Made by a program: the position numbers and the translations under genes
Shown here: positions 23,053 through 37,973 of the stretch, one piece after another
Numbering within the stretch: the stretch's first letter is position 1
Layout: the number at the start of each line of letters is the position of its first letter
IMG/VR virus record: IMGVR_UViG_2861064056_000003
Reading direction: 5' to 3' (one strand)
Length of the DNA: 42,396 bases
DNA from: a virus
Lineage: Duplodnaviria; Heunggongvirae; Uroviricota; Caudoviricetes
Notes under the pieces: generated by a model
The model's input: only the letters and a program-made list of their open reading frames with translations
Told to the model about the DNA's origin: nothing
Databases searched by the model: none

Positions 23053-23232
23053 TTACGCGTCAGGGGGTGTAATAGTATATCCAGCTATTTCTGCCAACTC
23101 GAGAAACGCCATCAGGCTGGCAATCCGCTCATCATCGGTCAGAACACGCACACCAACGATGTGTCCGTCCTTACGCTTGATAACAGCCCGGCATGTTTCC
23201 GGTAGTTCGCCTATAGATTCTTGAATATTCAT
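23053..23232 (-). CDS. Small protein (59 aa) downstream of a LexA-box promoter
   Basis: ATG at 23232 preceded by a G-rich RBS; track start at 23253 is TTG and sits inside the LexA box. Confidence 0.4.
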   Translation of the reverse strand: MNIQESIGELPETCRAVIKRKDGHIVGVRVLTDDERIASLMAFLELAEIAGYTITPPDA

Positions 23233-23254: not shown

Positions 23255-23270
23255 CTGTATATTTATACAG
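23255..23270. promoter_or_regulatory. LexA (SOS) box CTGTATATTTATACAG
   Basis: Fits CTGT-N8-ACAG with AT-rich spacer; 16/20 match to the recalled consensus taCTGTatatatatACAGta. Confidence 0.6.
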
Positions 23271-24900: not shown

Positions 24901-25389
24901 ATGGCTACCAACCCAAGAGAGCACGCCCGGCGAGTGCTGGACACGTTCTGGTGCGGGCGTGGTTTCCCTGTTGATCCAGCGAAAATTGCTCACGACATGG
25001 GATTAGATGTTTTTATTACCGATCTTCCTGGGAAAGTTTCTGGCGCACTGATTAAACAAAAAGATCAAGATCCAGCGATCTTTCTAAACAGTGATGACAA
25101 CAAAGTTCGTCAACGTTTTTCATGTGGGCATGAGTTGGGGCATTACATCGCCCGGCAAGCATCGCATAGCGATGAATATGAGTACGTTGATTTACGTGGC
25201 GAAACCGCAAGCGCCGGAACGCATCCTGATGAAATTTTTGCAAACAAGTTCGCAGCAGAACTTCTGATGCCGGTAGATGAGGTCAGAAAACTGCACGCTG
25301 ACGGTCAACCAAGTTATATAATGGCGCATTATTTTGGCGTATCTGACGATGCGATGACTTATCGTTTAAAGAACTTGAGGTTGGGGTAA
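24901..25389 (+). CDS. ImmA/IrrE-family zinc metallopeptidase (M78-type)
   Basis: RQRFSCGHELGHY signature (HEXXH after RxRF); strong RBS GGAGGAG; 162 aa. Confidence 0.7.
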   Translation: MATNPREHARRVLDTFWCGRGFPVDPAKIAHDMGLDVFITDLPGKVSGALIKQKDQDPAIFLNSDDNKVRQRFSCGHELGHYIARQASHSDEYEYVDLRGETASAGTHPDEIFANKFAAELLMPVDEVRKLHADGQPSYIMAHYFGVSDDAMTYRLKNLRLG

Positions 25390-25914: not shown

Positions 25915-25964
25915 TGCTGCCAACTTACTGATTTAGTGTATGATGGTGTTTTTGAGGTGCTCCA

Positions 25965-26240
25965 GTGGCTTCTGTTTCTATCAGCTGTCCCTCCTGTTCA
26001 GCTACTGACGGGGTGGTGCGTAACGGCAAAAGCACCGCCGGACATCAGCGCTATCTCTGCTCTCACTGCCGTAAAACATGGCAACTGCAGTTCACTTACA
26101 CCGCTTCTCAACCCGGTACGCACCAGAAAATCATTGATATGGCCATGAATGGCGTTGGATGCCGGGCAACCGCCCGCATTATGGGCGTTGGCCTCAACAC
26201 GATTTTACGTCACTTAAAAAACTCAGGCCGCAGTCGGTAA
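25965..26240 (+). CDS. insA: IS1 InsA
   Basis: 91 aa [42 protein letters not shown]..., the IS1 InsA sequence. Confidence 0.9.
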
Positions 26241-26662
26241 CCTCGCGCATACAGCCGGGCAGTGATGTGATTGTCTGCGCTGAAATGGACGAACAGTGGG
26301 GCTACGTCGGTGCTAAATCACGTCAGCGCTGGCTGTTTTACGCGTATGACAGGATACGGAGGACGGTTGTGGCGCACGTCTTCGGTGAACGCACTCTGGC
26401 CACACTGGAGCGTCTTCTGAGCCTGCTGTCGGCCTTTGAGGTCGTGGTATGGATGACGGATGGCTGGCCGCTGTATGAATCCCGCCTGAAGGGAAAGCTG
26501 CACGTAATCAGCAAGCGTTACACTCAGCGAATTGAGCGGCATAACCTGAATCTGAGACAACATCTGGCAAGGCTGGGACGGAAGTCACTGTCGTTCTCAA
26601 AATCGGTGGAGCTGCATGACAAGGTCATCGGGCATTATCTGAACATAAAACACTATCAGTAA
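26159..26662 (+). CDS. insB: IS1 InsB (made as InsAB' by frameshift)
   Basis: 167 aa ORF with the IS1 InsB sequence (..[28 protein letters not shown]..). Confidence 0.85.
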
Positions 26663-26677
26663 GTTGGAGTCATTACC

Positions 26678-26685
26678 GGAATTTG
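26678..26685. repeat. Target-site duplication GGAATTTG, right copy
   Basis: Matches 25902..25909. Confidence 0.75.
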
Positions 26686-26708
26686 AGGATTTAACACTAC
26701 AGTTGTAC

Positions 26709-30227: not shown

Positions 30228-31046
30228 TCAAAATGCTGAATTAGCAACGGATATAGCCGACTTTTTCCCCATTACCATCAATTTATCCAGTGTCATACTT
30301 CGCAGATTGTCGCTGTGGATCACCAGATACCCTGCCCGCTCAGCGATCTCTTTGAAAGCGTCAAAGGTCATCAGATGTTCGCCTTTGGCAACATGGCGCA
30401 TCCCGGTCACTTTTCCATTTTTGATAGTGGTGATAAAAGAAAAATCTGGAATGGTTGGGTGATTTTCATCGAGTAGCAGGCAGTGGATGTATTCAATCGC
30501 CTCTAACATTTGCGTCTGTGACAGTTGTTCTATGTGAGAGACGGCGAAGCGTTGATGAATCATGGTGTAGGCATCGGGATACATCATGCCTTTCTTGCCG
30601 ACCAGTATATTAACGGCATCACGCAAGGGAGTACGGTCATCGGTAGTTGTACTCCGCCTCTCTGGACGCTGGCTAAAATAACAATCTTCCAGCTTTTCGA
30701 AAACTTCCCAGGCCTGTTCTGTTTCCAGCATTTTGGCATGGCGAGCTGCGCCGCGTTCTGTCCAGAGAATGAGGGATCGGGTATGTTTAGCAACTGACTG
30801 ACTATCTGTCAGTCTGTTTTTGAAGTCGCGTAATTCATTACCTTCCAGCTTAAAAAAATGCTTTCCTACGACAAATCTGGCGATGTTGCGCTTGAAGTTT
30901 TGCTGGATACCATTTACTTCCGTGCCATACAAACTGGCAAGCAATTCAGTAGTGATGACGGGAAGTTGGTTATGATGTAGCGGAGAAAGGGATTCCGCAG
31001 ATATTTGGACTGTCATCGCAGTGGCCTCACTTAGTGTTTTTTTCAT
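30228..31046 (-). CDS. Putative phage antirepressor (Ant-like, KilA-N/ORF6N-type N-terminus)
   Basis: 272 aa; N-terminal region resembles antirepressor DNA-binding domains (memory-based); start taken at ATG 31046. Confidence 0.45.
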   Translation of the reverse strand: MKKTLSEATAMTVQISAESLSPLHHNQLPVITTELLASLYGTEVNGIQQNFKRNIARFVVGKHFFKLEGNELRDFKNRLTDSQSVAKHTRSLILWTERGAARHAKMLETEQAWEVFEKLEDCYFSQRPERRSTTTDDRTPLRDAVNILVGKKGMMYPDAYTMIHQRFAVSHIEQLSQTQMLEAIEYIHCLLLDENHPTIPDFSFITTIKNGKVTGMRHVAKGEHLMTFDAFKEIAERAGYLVIHSDNLRSMTLDKLMVMGKKSAISVANSAF

Positions 31047-31077
31047 CACCACCAGCGACGCCAATCATCTGGTGGTG
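31047..31077 (-). promoter_or_regulatory. RNA hairpin abutting the ant start codon
   Basis: Perfect 9-bp inverted repeat CACCACCAG-N13-CTGGTGGTG; on the mRNA the 3' arm ends directly at the AUG and covers the SD-like GGUGGUG. Confidence 0.4.
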
Positions 31078-31177
31078 AGCTGTGCAGGGTTGGCGTAACC
31101 GGCTAAGTGAACCCGGCGCTTCCACAGAAGCCCCCACACAGCCCACCATAATGCGAATGTGGCCGTGCCTAACACAT

Positions 31178-31197
31178 AAAAAAACCGCTAACGCGGC
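31178..31197 (-). terminator. Weak terminator between the nin genes and ant
   Basis: Minus strand CCGCGTTAGCGG hairpin followed by TTTTTTT. Confidence 0.3.
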
Positions 31198-31288
31198 TAT
31201 GCGTCACTTAGATATCCGGGACGCCAATCCCGGCAACCGATTTTGCGGCTGCGCGGAAACTATAGCCCCGGACTTTTTCTAAGTCAAT

Positions 31289-31510
31289 TCAATCAACTTC
31301 AAACCTCCGGTGTTCACATTCCATACACTCAACGGGAACATCATCGCGATGCAAGTCCACATATCCGACCCGCTTATACAACTCAATAATGTCCGGTAAC
31401 GTGACCAGATGTTTTTCCGGTTCCAACACCTCAGCCCGGGTTACTTTGTAATCTGAAATATAGAGCACTATCCGCCCGTTCCGTGGTAACTCCAGTTTAT
31501 CGCCAAACAT
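31289..31510 (-). CDS. Hypothetical nin-region protein
   Basis: 73 aa ORF in the minus-strand early operon. Confidence 0.35.
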   Translation of the reverse strand: MFGDKLELPRNGRIVLYISDYKVTRAEVLEPEKHLVTLPDIIELYKRVGYVDLHRDDVPVECMECEHRRFEVD

Positions 31511-35295: not shown

Positions 35296-35320
35296 CGGTC
35301 TTTCCTCGGTATAAGTTAAA

Positions 35321-35333
35321 CGCTGGTCAGGCG
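35321..35333 (-). repeat. Intercistronic motif CGCCTGACCAGCG, copy B
   Basis: Directly after the YdaT-like stop and before CCGAGGAAAGACCG-ATG. Confidence 0.6.
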
Positions 35334-35334
35334 C

Positions 35335-35811
35335 TCATGCATGGTGGTCTTGCGCAGTGCGTATCACTGCTCCTCGCGTCGCTACCAGCGCCGCTATTGC
35401 TTCGTCAATTTCCTGAATAGTTAACTCTGGCGCGAAGTGGAGATGTACAGCGTTAATCGCTTCCACCCCTTCTTTTGCCGCCAGCGTTGCCAGCAAAACG
35501 GGATCGCCCGGCGACTCCAGACGTGCCCGCCGTTCTGCGGGTAGCACGGCTTTCATCACACTGGCCAGCACCTGAGTTTTTCGGCGCGCCGCCGTTGTCT
35601 CGCCACGTAACCAGCGAAAGATTTTCTGCCGATTGTTGTTGATGGCTCTCCAGTCCACGTTGCCGTCCGCGTCCTCAAATTCATGTAGTCTCAACTCATC
35701 ATTGCGTCCCTGACTGAACCAGGCCCGGCAGATTTCAATCGTGACGAGTTCCTGCCCTGCCCTTGCCGCCCAGGTCAAAATCTCTTTTTGTAATTCCTCT
35801 TGGTTTTCCAT
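35335..35811 (-). CDS. YdaT-like early regulatory protein (CII position)
   Basis: 158 aa; NNNRQKIFRWLRGET resembles the recalled YdaT segment NQQNIYHRWLKGET; RBS AGGAGA. Confidence 0.45.
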   Translation of the reverse strand: MENQEELQKEILTWAARAGQELVTIEICRAWFSQGRNDELRLHEFEDADGNVDWRAINNNRQKIFRWLRGETTAARRKTQVLASVMKAVLPAERRARLESPGDPVLLATLAAKEGVEAINAVHLHFAPELTIQEIDEAIAALVATRGAVIRTAQDHHA

Positions 35812-35833
35812 AGCGTCTCCTGTCGCTAAAAAT

Positions 35834-35849
35834 TGATTACGCTTAATCA
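35834..35849. promoter_or_regulatory. Palindrome TGATTA-CGCT-TAATCA between the cro-like and YdaT-like genes
   Basis: Perfect 6-bp inverted repeat in the 58-bp gap. Confidence 0.25.
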
Positions 35850-35869
35850 GATTTGGGGCTCACCAACAG

Positions 35870-36100
35870 TTAAGCTGCTTCCGTTTTAGGCAAGCTGTCA
35901 TCTGGGTTTGGGTAAAGATCCGGTCTAAGATCATGAGGGGTCACGCGCCATTCAAGAGCTTCAGATGTGCGCAAAACCTCTTCACCGGGAACCCGTCCTT
36001 TGAACCAGAGGCTTACCGTTTGTGGTTTTTTCCCTAATCGCCGCCCTAACTCGGATTGACTCATTACGGAAAGAATTTTGTCTTGCAGTTGTTTATCCAT
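35870..36100 (-). CDS. Cro/YdaS-like HTH regulator
   Basis: Start taken at MDKQ with RBS AAGGAG; SQSELGRRLGKKPQTVSLW HTH; divergent from the repressor gene. Confidence 0.65.
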   Translation of the reverse strand: MDKQLQDKILSVMSQSELGRRLGKKPQTVSLWFKGRVPGEEVLRTSEALEWRVTPHDLRPDLYPNPDDSLPKTEAA

Positions 36101-36198
36101 ATGGACTCCTTGTGTCCGCGTCATCATTACAAACAATAACTGTAATTACAAATTATATTTGCAATGCTCCCTACAATTAAACCTTGTATCCTTACGGT
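36101..36198. promoter_or_regulatory. Divergent promoter/operator region (OR-like)
   Basis: 98-bp AT-rich gap with TTACAAA at 36127 and 36146, inverted TTTGCAA at 36158, and dyad TTACA-N9-TGTAA at 36127..36145. Confidence 0.5.
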
Positions 36199-36612
36199 AT
36201 GAACACAAAAACGAAAAACATGGCTTTTGCTAGCCGACTACAACGGATTCTAAAAGACTTAGGCTGGTCTCAATCTGAGTTAGCTCGCCATATTGGGGTT
36301 ACGGCTCAATCAGTTCAGGCATGGTGTAATGGGGTAACTCCAAGAAAAGATAAATTAGACAAGCTAGCAAAAGTGACCGGATACCCTGTTCATTTTTTCT
36401 TCATGAATGAAGGGGAATATTTGGATGAATCCACACTACACCCGGGTAATTACAATCAAGAACTAACCCCGCAAGAACAGGCTCTACTGCAACTATTCAG
36501 AGGACTGCCTGAGAGCGAAAAAAATAAATTAATCAATGAGCTAAAAGAAAAAAGAGAGCACTTCGATCTACTGCTAAAAGAACTACTTGAAGCCAAAAAC
36601 CAGACAAAATAG
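36199..36612 (+). CDS. DicA-like HTH repressor without a peptidase domain
   Basis: XRE-type HTH (QSELARHIGVTAQSVQAW) plus C-terminal LTPQEQALLQLFRGLPESEKNKLINELKEKREHFDLLLKELLEAKNQTK resembling the recalled E. coli DicA C-terminus; no SD before the ATG. Confidence 0.7.
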   Translation: MNTKTKNMAFASRLQRILKDLGWSQSELARHIGVTAQSVQAWCNGVTPRKDKLDKLAKVTGYPVHFFFMNEGEYLDESTLHPGNYNQELTPQEQALLQLFRGLPESEKNKLINELKEKREHFDLLLKELLEAKNQTK

Positions 36613-36730
36613 TTCAGTTCAAATTTCCAGGCCAGCCGCTGCTGGCATGCAACTTTCCCCTAACACAAAAACACCTTTACACAGTGAATATTTTTTTGCC
36701 CCTCACTACAAATTATTTTTTAAAAACACA

Positions 36731-36759
36731 TTGACCATTACAAATACAAATTGTAAAGT
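36731..36759 (+). promoter_or_regulatory. Putative PL-like promoter with operator dyad
   Basis: TTGACC, 17-bp spacer, TAAAGT; the spacer holds dyad TTACAAAT-ACA-AATTGTAA sharing the OR half-site. Confidence 0.35.
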
Positions 36760-37095
36760 CACTTTCATCAACAACGCTTACCCAGCGGCAGTTGTTCAGA
36801 AACACGTTCTGACAGCCGGAAAGACGGCACCAAATTTTGCGCGTCGGCGCCAACACGGTGACAGAGGGAAAGACTTCACCGGCATATGGCACATGTGTCG
36901 AAGCGGTCTGGATGGAAGCGGAGCCTTAACGCGTTGTCTCCATAGCAGGTAGCCGGAATGTGCAAGCCACAGCCAGGTATGAGCGATTGATTCACCATCA
37001 AGGCGATACGGTGTGACCACCAGGGAAGAGTCCTGGCTACAACACGAGAGCGCACTTCATCGACTCAACTTTGAGCTTTGTCGTTAAATTTTGAA

Positions 37096-37181
37096 ATGGC
37101 GGAGTGCGCTCCCGGTTGTGGTGAACAGGTGTTTAACGGGAACTCCCTGCCCGTTACCCGGTTCGATTCCGGGCGCCCATC
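37096..37181 (+). other. tRNA-like element with canonical T-arm, not a confident tRNA
   Basis: CCCGG-TTCGATT-CCGGG T-arm and a preceding AACGGG..CCCGTT stem-loop, but the acceptor stem fails in two of seven pairs and there is no CCA. Confidence 0.15.
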
Positions 37182-37325
37182 ATCAATTTGCTGTGTTTAG
37201 TCTTTGCCCAGTCCGCACGATGGGCCATTTTTTCACACAGCCAGGTTTTATCGCTGTGCCTGAGTCCCCAACAGGAGAGGCCAAACCCGCAGCGTGACAC
37301 CAGGGAAAGACCGGAGGAAGTACCA

Positions 37326-37338
37326 CGCCTGACCAGCG
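37326..37338 (+). repeat. Intercistronic motif CGCCTGACCAGCG, copy C
   Basis: Same 13-mer as 32897..32910 and 35321..35333 in the plus orientation; GCCTGACCAGC recurs at 37349 and 37384. Confidence 0.55.
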
Positions 37339-37622
37339 TTGACCATGAGCCTGACCAGCTCAAAACAGGAAAGACCAGCCCGGGCCTGACCAGCCCTGTA
37401 CGGTCGTAATGGAAACATAACGACGCCGGAAACGTAACCGGCACCCTTTAGATAGCAAAAGACCCGCACAAGGCGGGCCAGTTACCCCGAACGGCGACCA
37501 AACCATTCGGATTTATCACAAGTGACCAAACTTGTGATGAGGAAAGACCAACGACACTGACGCTATGGAAGCTGATCAATATTCGCTGATCGGCTCTGAG
37601 TATACATTACCAAGGAGTCGCT

Positions 37623-37943
37623 ATGGAAGCGCGCACCATCCCAGTAACACTCTTTATTCATTATGCAACTTCAACTTTCAGCCACGAAAAGCTGCTTGTT
37701 GCGACTGTTGATATGTCAAAAAATTTTCCAGACAGGTACATCCTTCTGGAAAGCCGCGAAATTGAAATTACCGTTAACCAGCCCGAGCCAATCGACATCA
37801 TCGGTTTACAGGTCGAGCAACTGCGTGAACAAAAACAGAAAACAGTCGCCGACGCCCAACAGCGTATTGCTGCTATCGATGACAAAATCCAGCAGTTACT
37901 TTGCATCGAATACACGCCAGATACCGATGAGCTCCCCTACTAA
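37623..37943 (+). CDS. Hypothetical early protein
   Basis: 106 aa; strong RBS AAGGAG; first clear gene of the plus-strand operon. Confidence 0.45.
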   Translation: MEARTIPVTLFIHYATSTFSHEKLLVATVDMSKNFPDRYILLESREIEITVNQPEPIDIIGLQVEQLREQKQKTVADAQQRIAAIDDKIQQLLCIEYTPDTDELPY

Positions 37944-37973
37944 AAACCACTGACCTGTAATGAGGAAAGACCA

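Follow-up and report, generated by a model that had tools for sequence, protein, structure and literature searches.

We analyzed a 42.4-kb phage genome (the window, meaning the whole stretch of DNA under study) and found that its region 35870-36770 is probably an immunity (lysis-lysogeny) switch of the DicA/GfoR/GtgR type, with dyads bound by the repressor and SOS induction of the Rem/GfoA type. The layout follows the lambdoid OR/OL design: the repressor gene and cro diverge, dyads are repeated in the interval that separates them, and a further copy stands at an early-left promoter on the far side of the repressor gene. Sequences, positions, conservation and family memberships in the switch were established directly. 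The immunity module is a mosaic that joins a DicA-type repressor to cro and cII genes of the Rac/CP-933P type. Its features are as follows.

35335..35811, minus strand: YdaT-family gene, 158 aa, CII analogue, with replication genes after it
35870..36100, minus strand: cro-like gene of the YdaS family, 76 aa, opening the early-right operon
36127..36145: O1, exact dyad TTACAAACAATAACTGTAA, adjoining cro and conserved in five loci
36146..36164: O2, TTACAAATTATATTTGCAA, one mismatch, abutting O1, with a perfect TATAAT on the minus strand inside it
36152..36180, minus strand: putative PR, TTAATT (36180-36175), 17-nt spacer, TATAAT (36157-36152), start near 36145
36171..36189: O3, CTACAATTAAACCTTGTAT, two mismatches, adjoining the repressor gene
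36187..36192, plus strand: putative PRM -10 (TATCCT), 6 nt before the ATG at 36199, weak -35
36199..36612, plus strand: repressor gene, 137 aa, HTH_3, DicA/GfoR type, without S24
36706..36724: CTACAAATTATTTTTTAAA, candidate OL2 or UP element with its centre at -52 of PL
36731..36759, plus strand: PL-like early-left promoter, TTGACC-17-TAAAGT, start near 36766-36767, conserved in relatives
36738..36756: OL1, exact dyad TTACAAATACAAATTGTAA, within the PL spacer and -10

Chromosomal prophages in ~414 E. coli genomes, or roughly 8-9% of the complete E. coli genomes in the collection, match the whole window at 100% identity. As terminase, portal, lysis, Q, replication and integrase genes are all present, the host element is apparently a complete lambdoid E. 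coli prophage. A megablast search with 35300-37700 gave no match in the phage and plasmid collections, and across the genome, phage and plasmid collections searched the element was seen solely as a chromosomal prophage. A word-based protein search found seven relatives, and a scan of genome contigs yielded six loci; because these were few, we drew heteroimmune relatives from tblastn against phages, and from K-12.

RefSeq places the repressor start at 36220 (130 aa), while the upstream ATG at 36199 gives 137 aa. Residues 14-65 match Pfam HTH_3 at 1.7e-12, with no other relevant Pfam match, and the HTH is nearest to the N-terminal domain of the 434 repressor (E 4e-5). A preceding sequence-only reading had called the protein DicA-like and non-cleavable, and both descriptions held as far as sequence analysis reaches. 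DicA is 31% identical over 131 aa, its full length (E 1e-15), and has the C-terminal LLxLFxxLPESE motif in common with the repressor; GtgR/GogR are 33% identical with 98% of the query covered, and RacR shows local HTH similarity only (E 4e-5). An XRE HTH, a small size (about 130-150 aa for the class) and full-length similarity to a founding member place the protein among the short repressors of the DicA/GfoR/GtgR type. The autocleavable lambda CI/LexA class is defined by an S24 Ser-Lys dyad and an Ala-Gly site, and the repressor falls outside it: Pfam and PHROG profile searches found no S24 peptidase domain, and the translation has no AG or CG dipeptide that could serve as an Ala-Gly or Cys-Gly cleavage site. 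The structure model is all-helical, consisting of a five-helix HTH domain, a disordered linker (residues 75-89, modelled with low confidence) and two C-terminal helices, and its Foldseek matches in the PDB were confined to the HTH part.

Such a linker might be the target of proteolysis in trans, as ImmA cuts ImmR in ICEBs1. The window does encode an ImmA/IrrE-type metallopeptidase (24901-25389) with a HELGH motif and matches to Pfam Peptidase_M78 (7.7e-18) and the metallo-protease family phrog_87 (3.9e-30), which on this explanation would inactivate the repressor by cutting residues 75-89. The gene lies 11 kb away, however, in an accessory region beside an IS1 insertion and with no adjoining HTH gene, and we know of no DicA/GfoR family member that is cleaved. 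Gifsy repressors stay uncleaved on induction (PMC3121763), and a LexA-controlled Rem-family candidate exists in the window, leaving cleavage of the linker very improbable.

The 42.4 kb contain two exact copies of the 19-bp dyad TTACA-N9-TGTAA, at 36127-36145 and 36738-36756, in agreement with the earlier proposal of a shared motif at OR-like and OL-like positions. Allowing up to one mismatch adds the site at 36146-36164, and all three matches lie in the immunity region. By sequence, O1-O3 make up a predicted three-site OR. Counted over the whole window the dyads are not significant alone (3 found, 1.37 expected, and a count of 3 reached in 13 of 100 shuffles), and we therefore put the weight on a local-composition simulation, on position and on conservation. 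The count, together with the A/T-richness of the region (34-38% GC), could be taken to mean that the dyads are incidental promoter palindromes or mainly sites of the YdaS-like Cro, with the HTH protein binding elsewhere or not at all; in CP-933P, the footprints of PaaR2 and YdaS overlap, so that Cro-type proteins do share such regions. Yet with the local AT-rich composition, chance predicts just 0.0008 exact dyads for the 119-bp intergenic region and 0.0004 for the 188 bp that follow the repressor gene, with P about 1e-3 or less for each dyad cluster, and TTACAA half-sites number five in 36100-36800 against 0.33 expected.

Conservation argues in the same direction. Salmonella, Serratia and Klebsiella relatives, whose repressors are 65-87% identical, have O1, O2, O3 and OL1 at the same places, even in loci with a 157-aa gene between the repressor gene and PL; O3 has one mismatch in the relatives (TTACAAACAAACCTTGTAT). 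Across genera the dyads are kept while their flanks diverge, and the recognition helix TAQSVQAW is identical in every repressor whose locus keeps the dyad. Four heteroimmune relatives each have their own motif common to the OR and OL positions: TTAGT-N4-ACTAA in Qin, ACAAG-N5-CTTGT in Klebsiella phi5.1, an AACC/GGTT type in Gifsy-2 and an ATCGAT type in SPN3UB. In a lambdoid switch, Cro would be expected to use the same operators, and repressor binding is compatible with that. Given these patterns, we regard dyads without a role for the repressor as the least probable of the explanations considered, and read them as putative repressor operators.

TTGACC (36731-36736) with TAAAGT (36754-36759) is the sole promoter-like match in 35700-37800, and the downstream dyad lies inside it, correctly placed by the sequence-only reading as overlapping a strong promoter-like sequence. 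The equivalent of OL1, CTACAAAT-N3-ATTGTAG, occupies the same promoter position in the Salmonella, Serratia and Klebsiella loci. At the OL2 candidate the left half-site CTACAAAT and an A/T tract are kept in four loci, the right half is degenerate, and 36706-36724 could equally be an UP element. Of the two operator clusters proposed earlier, OR thus has its multiple sites, whereas OL has a single convincing dyad and one degenerate site.

A promoter scan of the intergenic region found nothing at a threshold of >=9/12, and PR and PRM were consequently assigned by eye; the geometry of PR is conserved in relatives. Before the repressor gene, TATCCT-N6-ATG is invariant across five loci: TGTATCCT does not vary and its 6-nt distance to the ATG is fixed, while those 6 nt vary. 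The first ATG (36199) is kept in 5/5 loci and the second (36220) is CTA in Salmonella L002. The repressor ATG had been said to lack a Shine-Dalgarno sequence, and we likewise found none, with duplex energies of -2.3 and +0.1 kcal/mol compared with -6.3 to -9.3 for neighbouring genes. The TATCCT-N6-ATG arrangement and the missing Shine-Dalgarno would fit a leaderless repressor transcript.

From these patterns we infer repressor binding, the promoter positions, activation, the leaderless status of the transcript and the induction route. In the lysogen, the 137-aa HTH repressor would bind as a dimer to the 19-bp dyads (consensus half-site TTACAAAT), that is, to O1-O3 between its gene and cro and to one strong site, OL1, inside the early-left promoter. 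Occupation of O1 and O2 would block PR and keep cro, ydaT and replication off, and occupation of OL1 would block PL and with it the leader RNA, exonuclease, xis and int. The centre of O2 falls at -44 of the putative maintenance start, from where the repressor probably activates its own weak promoter; that of O3 falls at -19, where high repressor concentrations probably turn the promoter off. The 5' end of the repressor mRNA is probably the A of the ATG at 36199, making the message leaderless. O1 and O2 are 19 bp apart centre to centre, compared with 23-24 bp in lambda, and the cooperative geometry may therefore differ.

The gene divergent from the repressor had been described as Cro/YdaS-like, which its profile matches confirm (Pfam YdaS_toxin 7.7e-9; phrog_35 2.7e-24). 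Its product shares 36% identity with Rac YdaS and is not similar to DicC; the gene has an AAGGAG Shine-Dalgarno at 36106-36111. The YdaT-family protein matches Pfam YdaT_toxin at 2e-15 and is 37% identical to Rac YdaT. A CII-like role for YdaT is known from CP-933P (PMC8630535, PMC9986795), where the toxin-antitoxin reading of YdaS/YdaT has been disputed and replaced by Cro/CII roles (PMC8630535). Despite the Pfam family names, we did not adopt a toxin-antitoxin role for the homologues here and preferred Cro/CII (PMC8630535).

Since the repressor would be incapable of self-cleavage, an antirepressor had been predicted, and the window contains a candidate under an apparent LexA box, besides a second module of the immunity type.

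23053..23232, minus strand: 59-aa ORF of the Rem/GfoA family, candidate for a small SOS-induced antirepressor, phrog_340 1.6e-20
23255..23270, minus strand: LexA box CTGTATAAATATACAG, overlapping the -10 of the 59-aa ORF promoter
30228..31510, minus strand: second immunity-type module, with a Rem-like ORF, isrK/a1b1, C4 and Ant
30228-31016, minus strand: Ant antirepressor, phrog_4792 2.7e-163; Pfam ORF6N
31068-31153, minus strand: C4 antisense RNA, Rfam 75.2 bits (gathering 45)
31178-31265, minus strand: isrK / a1b1, Rfam isrK 80.4 bits (gathering 50); c4-a1b1 52.9 (46.7)
31289-31510, minus strand: 73-aa Rem-like ORF, phrog_340 3.5e-21

The 59-aa ORF encodes a small Rem-family protein outside the immunity region, 13 kb away and before the Q region, like rem in Qin. 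K-12 Rem matches the same family, phrog_340, at 4.4e-21; BLASTP gave no alignment between the two proteins and the link is solely through the phrog_340 profile. Through Rem and this family, the ORF also appears related to GfoA. The near-consensus LexA box TACTGTATAAATATACAGGT overlaps the -10 of its promoter. It is the one exact match to CTGT-N8-ACAG in the window; one per 42 kb is not improbable by chance and the count at up to one mismatch is as expected, so that the weight of the box comes from its position and conservation. Exact LexA boxes are found at -37 to -41 of homologues of the ORF (40-44% identical) in three other contigs. Induction would thus most likely run from DNA damage through LexA cleavage to transcription of the 59-aa ORF, whose product would bind the repressor and remove it from DNA.

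The same switch might instead be induced by Ant freed from C4/isrK control or by the 73-aa Rem-like ORF, with the 59-aa ORF having another role. Ant matches anti-repressor PHROGs at 2.7e-163 and, with its C-terminal part, the Rem family phrog_340 (4.2e-12), to which the 73-aa ORF belongs as well. C4 RNA, a1/b1 target repeats and a downstream antirepressor gene are the constituents of immI of the P1/P7 type, and the C4, a1b1 and isrK RNAs directly upstream of Ant all score above their Rfam gathering thresholds. The window scan, however, found no LexA box near the ant operon, which therefore has no direct SOS link, and P22 Ant is not required to induce its own prophage (PMC3121763). The Gifsy inducers are LexA-controlled small proteins, a signature that the 59-aa ORF carries and its homologues conserve. 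We thus consider Ant or the 73-aa ORF unlikely as the principal inducer and favor the 59-aa ORF; Ant, restrained by the C4-type antisense RNA, could provide a further induction route, possibly for cross-talk between phages.

Downstream of PL lies a long leader.

36767..37622, plus strand: untranslated early-left leader, about 850 nt, with a 5' hairpin, GAAAGA-loop hairpins and a KilS-like module
37040-37235, plus strand: KilS-like sRNA module, ending in a terminator and aligning to Rac KilS and RprA

The leader has no annotated gene in RefSeq, is conserved in relatives including its 5' hairpin, and has a fold z-score of -2.4. The KilS-like module resembles the 3' half of RprA. We rejected it as RprA proper (37 bits against an Rfam gathering threshold of 70), as only the 3' part is in common. 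A tRNA gene suggested by a T-arm at 37155-37171 was also rejected: ARAGORN found no tRNA, the tRNA-Sec match reached only 19 bits, and the apparent 5' acceptor pairs better with an upstream arm. The GAAAGA-loop hairpins were not taken as nut/boxB, there being no N-like arginine-rich ORF after PL. At least 101 viral contigs carry the seed-plus-terminator core of the module; what lies upstream varies, but the 5' half of RprA is never part of it. This raises the speculative, rather doubtful idea that OL1/PL also gates a structured leader, that the end of the module is nearly identical to RprA in its processed 3' form, and that lambdoid phages widely deploy an Hfq sRNA mimicking it on induction, as Qin deploys DicF. 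If true, the leader sRNA could compete with or imitate host RprA, and the repeated GGAAAGAC hairpins, partly complementary to the seed, might modulate it.

Several known systems resemble the switch. Lambda has the same geometry, with the repressor gene between a tripartite OR and OL/PL, and its operator centres at roughly -19, -42 and -66 resemble the putative -19, -44 and -63 of the maintenance start here. Lambda CI carries an S24 autocleavage domain, which the present repressor lacks; O1 and O2 abut, and there is one strong OL site. The HTH is closest to that of the 434 repressor (E 4e-5) and the half-site contains a 434-like ACAA, but the 19-bp dyads have ACAA-N7-TTGT spacing in place of the N6 of 434.

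Qin dicA-dicC-dicBp with Rem, in K-12, has a repressor of the same architecture (31% identity along the full length, with the C-terminal LLxLFxxLPESE helix region included), a divergent cro-type gene, three intergenic operator positions, a Rem-family gene upstream of the Q region and an sRNA inside the early-left transcript (DicF in Qin, the KilS-like module here). In dicBp, too, an operator lies between a TTGACC -35 and the -10, followed by CATCAACA... at the transcript start. In Qin, DicA has been shown to bind Oc and to activate dicA, and O1 occupies the position of this proven operator (PMC3441716); DicA represses dicBp, which Rem derepresses 165-fold (PMC10448788). The operators differ (TTACAAAT-N3-ATTTGTAA against TTAGTCATAACTAA/Oc in Qin), as do the cro genes, the YdaS type having no similarity to DicC. 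Qin is cryptic, whereas the present element looks complete, and dicBp is not induced by mitomycin C, whereas a near-consensus LexA box precedes the Rem-like ORF here.

CP-933P PaaR2/YdaS/YdaT of E. coli O157:H7, compared by layout, likewise has a short CI-like repressor divergent from ydaS-ydaT, with Cro and CII in the same Pfam families as ours. There, the paaR2 mRNA is proven to be leaderless, OR has been footprinted and multiple palindromic operators span both promoters (PMC8630535), and PL933P has OL sites and is repressed by the same proteins (PMC8630535). CP-933P differs in its operator consensus, GTTTAGTAA, and in the paaA2-parE2 toxin-antitoxin pair behind the repressor gene, which the window lacks. 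Gifsy-1/-2/-3 (GfoR, GtgR/GogR, GfhR; GfoA, GftA, GfhA) also have small, non-cleavable repressors; the small antirepressors that inactivate them are under LexA control, and their genes are found outside the immunity region (PMC3121763). GTG, the reported start codon of Gifsy gftA, is also that of distant homologues of the 59-aa ORF; the Gifsy dinI-antirepressor-irsA operon is lacking here, the LexA-controlled ORF standing directly before the DUF1367/DUF1364/Q genes.

The design has thus already been demonstrated experimentally in the homologous Qin, CP-933P and Gifsy systems (PMC10448788, PMC3441716, PMC8630535, PMC3121763). As each element has an experimental precedent in one of these, the earlier interpretation, though it stands in every element as far as sequence analysis reaches, is not novel, and it leaves the understanding of such switches as those systems established it. 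What it adds is a testable wiring diagram for this prophage, comprising the operator sequence that defines its immunity type, the likely promoters and the likely route from SOS to antirepressor, which is useful for predicting homo- and heteroimmunity and antibiotic-triggered induction in carrier strains.

The cro-like gene, assigned by Pfam and PHROG profiles, was found to diverge from an HTH_3 repressor gene, the arrangement that the sequence-only reading of a DicA-type immunity region at 35870-36770 had described.

35335-35811, minus strand, YdaT-family gene, following the cro-like ORF and followed by the replication genes
35870-36100, minus strand, cro-like ORF of 76 aa (Pfam YdaS_toxin, 7.7e-9; phrog_35) with an AAGGAG Shine–Dalgarno sequence
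36199 (137 aa) or 36220 (130 aa, start annotated in RefSeq) to 36612, plus strand, HTH_3 repressor gene

The repressor had been called DicA-like, and the alignments agree: it aligns with K-12 DicA from end to end at 31% identity (E 1e-15), sharing the LLxLFxxLPESE...ELL region at the C-terminus, and is 33% identical to GtgR/GogR of Gifsy-2 and Gifsy-1, while the similarity to RacR is local and limited to the HTH. The closest match of the HTH is the N-terminal domain of the 434 repressor. In an AlphaFold model (mean pLDDT 73), the HTH domain has five helices, and a linker modelled with low confidence (residues 75-89) joins it to a pair of C-terminal helices; Foldseek matches of the model were confined to the HTH. 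Profile searches of Pfam and PHROGs gave no S24 peptidase match, and the search for a cryptic S24 domain, which the same reading had taken to be missing, was therefore negative; neither Ala-Gly nor Cys-Gly occurs in the repressor sequence.

In relatives, a conserved 157-aa gene and a terminator lie between the repressor gene and the early-left promoter PL (3427-3900 in the Salmonella locus L002, 3410-3883 in L004 and 3431-3904 in L006); the gene has no match in Pfam or PHROG. In the corresponding stretch of the window, 36613-36705, the gene is missing and just the T-run is retained, which suggests that the repressor gene is followed by the scar of a deletion or by a site of moron insertion.

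We searched the whole window for TTACA-N9-TGTAA with at most one mismatch and found three matches, all in the immunity region, beside a more degenerate fourth copy.

36127-36145, dyad O1, exact
36146-36164, dyad O2, one mismatch
36171-36189, dyad O3, the fourth copy, two mismatches
36738-36756, downstream dyad OL1, exact

The raw count is not significant by itself (3 observed against 1.37 expected; equalled in 13 of 100 shuffles). Under local simulations preserving the A/T-rich dinucleotide content, the expected number of exact dyads was 0.0008 in the intergenic region, where the proposed element is exact (O1), and 0.0004 in the 188 bp behind the repressor gene; TTACAA half-sites were enriched 15-fold within 36100-36800. 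The dyad predicted over a strong promoter-like sequence downstream of the repressor gene is OL1, which covers the spacer and −10 of TTGACC-17-TAAAGT (36731-36759), the sole promoter-like site from a scan of 35700-37800. Of the two operator clusters proposed, the OR-like one is borne out, and the OL-like one comes down to one strong dyad with a degenerate site (36706-36724) that may just as well be a UP element.

Repressors 65-87% identical to that of the window were found in Salmonella, Serratia, Klebsiella and one metagenome, each with the same cro-ydaT-replication neighbours and an unchanged recognition helix, TAQSVQAW. Across all of them O1, O2 and O3 stay in register while nearby bases vary, and a dyad CTACAAAT-N3-ATTGTAG, between the TTGACC −35 and the −10 of the downstream promoter, is kept despite the intervening 157-aa gene that the window lacks. 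Each of four heteroimmune relatives carries its own motif at both the OR and OL positions (Qin, TTAGT-N4-ACTAA type; Klebsiella phage ST16-OXA48phi5.1, ACAAG-N5-CTTGT; Gifsy-2, AACC/GGTT type; SPN3UB, ATCGAT type). At OR and OL, the motif thus co-varies with the immunity type, as would be expected if a single protein reads both.

The repressor ATG had been read as having no Shine–Dalgarno sequence, and pairing with the anti-Shine–Dalgarno was indeed weak, at −2.3 kcal/mol before ATG 36199 and +0.1 before ATG 36220; the 59-aa ORF (a candidate antirepressor), cro, ydaT and the genes of 106 and 738 aa gave −6.3 to −9.3. Of the two possible starts, 36199 is the conserved one: its ATG is found in five of five loci, and the Salmonella locus has CTA in place of the second ATG. 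In every one of the five an invariant TGTATCCT precedes ATG 36199 at a distance of exactly 6 nt, and those 6 nt vary.

36187-36192, plus strand, putative −10 (TATCCT) of the repressor promoter PRM
36180-36152, minus strand, putative cro-side promoter PR (TTAATT-17-TATAAT), the best conserved candidate, with its −10 within O2 and its −35 within O3

With TATCCT as the −10, the repressor transcript would start at the A of ATG 36199 and be leaderless, placing the centres of O3, O2 and O1 at −19, −44 and −63. Lambda OR3, OR2 and OR1 lie close to these positions relative to PRM. The leaderless state of CP-933P paaR2 is proven by 5′ RACE and N-terminal sequencing (PMC8630535), and Oc-bound DicA reportedly activates the weak dicA promoter (PMC3441716).

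The stretch 35300-37700 occurs with 100% identity on the chromosomes of many E. coli strains and was matched in 473 of 5,426 complete genomes (at least 99% identity in 414; none plasmid-borne); collections of phages and plasmids gave no close match. The SA186 copy of the element adjoins tRNA-Leu/Cys/Gly and pgsA, and its gene set includes portal, terminase, lysis, Q, DnaB-type helicase, integrase and excisionase-like genes, so that it looks like a complete lambdoid prophage. An IS1 copy at about 25930-26700 of the window (insA/insB ORFs 25965-26662), disrupting the gene downstream of an M78 peptidase gene, is missing in SA186, and the coordinate offset between the two shifts there by 776 bp.

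Members of this repressor family are known to be non-cleavable and to be inactivated by small antirepressors encoded elsewhere; in the Gifsy phages LexA controls these antirepressors (PMC3121763), and in Qin, the antirepressor Rem derepresses a DicA-controlled promoter 165-fold (PMC10448788). Several candidate inducers lie in the window, one of them with associated regulatory RNAs.

23053-23232, minus strand, 59-aa ORF, phrog_340, predicted LexA control
24901-25389, plus strand, M78 (ImmA/IrrE) Peptidase_M78 gene in an accessory region
30228-31016, minus strand, Ant, 262 aa, its C-terminal part (30228-30470) phrog_340
31068-31265, minus strand, isrK, c4-a1b1 and C4 antisense RNA (Rfam, all above gathering scores)
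31289-31510, minus strand, 73-aa ORF, phrog_340, head of the isrK-C4-ant operon

The sole exact CTGT-N8-ACAG of the window (23255-23270; context TACTGTATAAATATACAGGT), a putative LexA box, overlaps the −10 of a promoter 22 nt upstream of the 59-aa ORF, which has a good Shine–Dalgarno sequence. The ORF matches phrog_340 at 1.6e-20 and K-12 Rem does so at 4.4e-21; pairwise BLASTP between the two was negative. Three homologues on other viral contigs (40-44% identical) are each preceded by an exact LexA box, at −37 to −41. From the box, the family match and the boxes at the homologues, the prophage is most likely induced by an SOS-controlled antirepressor of the Rem/GfoA type. The occurrence of three phrog_340 modules in one prophage, in the 59-aa ORF, the 73-aa ORF and Ant, suggests that this fold is the repressor-binding unit. 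The RNAs sit between the 73-aa ORF and the Ant gene, just upstream of ant, and by this arrangement isrK-C4-ant is a P1/P7-type immI module in a lambdoid prophage and a second, LexA-independent candidate antirepressor route. Induction through the M78 peptidase, for whose gene no adjacent HTH partner was detected, is a remote alternative.

The part of the region most deserving further attention is the leader RNA, about 850 nt behind PL with no annotated gene and conserved in Salmonella and Klebsiella relatives.

36767-36800, plus strand, 5′ hairpin CAUCAACAAC...GUUGUUCAG
36818-36831, 36864-36877, 37020-37036, 37300-37314, 37367-37377, 37540-37550 and about 37958-37968, repeats of the motif GGAAAGAC(C)
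37040-37235, plus strand, KilS-like sRNA region, aligning with Rac KilS (b4833) and the KilS upstream hairpin
37101-37181, plus strand, tRNA-like piece that includes a perfect T-arm, CCCGGUUCGAUUCCGGG, and immediately precedes the RprA-like core
37327-37394, plus strand, GCCTGACCAGC in three exact copies at spacings of 22 and 35 nt

The 5′ hairpin, placed also at about 2936-2975 of locus L010 and in L019 and L018, recurs in Qin dicBp, Gifsy-2 and Klebsiella phage phi5.1, where changes in its stem compensate for one another. Several GGAAAGAC copies are predicted to form hairpins of 4-5 bp with GAAAGA or GAAGAGU loops, again with compensating changes in the stems. The Shine–Dalgarno sequence of the 738-aa gene is one of the copies, and the AGUCUUUGCC seed of the KilS/RprA-like module shows partial complementarity to the motif. 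The repeats could be ribosome-binding-site remnants, protein-binding loops or internal pairing sites.

KilS has been verified by northern blot (Bar et al., PMC8175672). The last 48 nt of the KilS-like region (37188-37235) share about 42/48 identity with the last 47-48 nt of RprA, terminator included, and the 3′ part of RprA is the processed form RprAproc (PMC9262595); we found no mention of this resemblance in the literature. RprA itself was rejected for the region (Rfam RprA 37 bits against a gathering score of 70). The 23-nt core TTGCTGTGTNTAGTCTTNGCCCA occurs in at least 101 IMG/VR contigs with variable terminator loops and upstream contexts, about 25 of them with the same placement upstream of orf106-exonuclease genes; the RprA 5′ half is absent from all 101. 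On other viral contigs, too, the core is preceded by similar hairpins that resemble a T-arm. A tRNA gene at 37101-37181 was rejected, with no ARAGORN call and an Rfam tRNA-Sec score of only 19 bits.

Among known systems, Qin has three operators between dicA and dicC as well as operators at dicBp (PMC10448788), and dicBp shares the TTGACC-operator-(−10)-CATCAACA layout with the PL of the window. In CP-933P the repressor is leaderless, the OR sites have been footprinted, and both PaaR2 and YdaS repress a PL promoter that carries OL sites (PMC8630535). Unlike the known systems, the window has the operator sequence TTACAAAT-N3-ATTTGTAA, pairs a DicA-type repressor with cro and cII of the Rac/CP-933P type (cro/YdaT are 36-37% identical to Rac YdaS/YdaT, and cro has no similarity to DicC) and carries a clear LexA box at its Rem-like gene. 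These are differences at the level of the member and not of kind. The observation made from the sequence is confirmed and its interpretation supported: among lambdoid immunity systems of the DicA/GfoR type, the region is a new but ordinary member.
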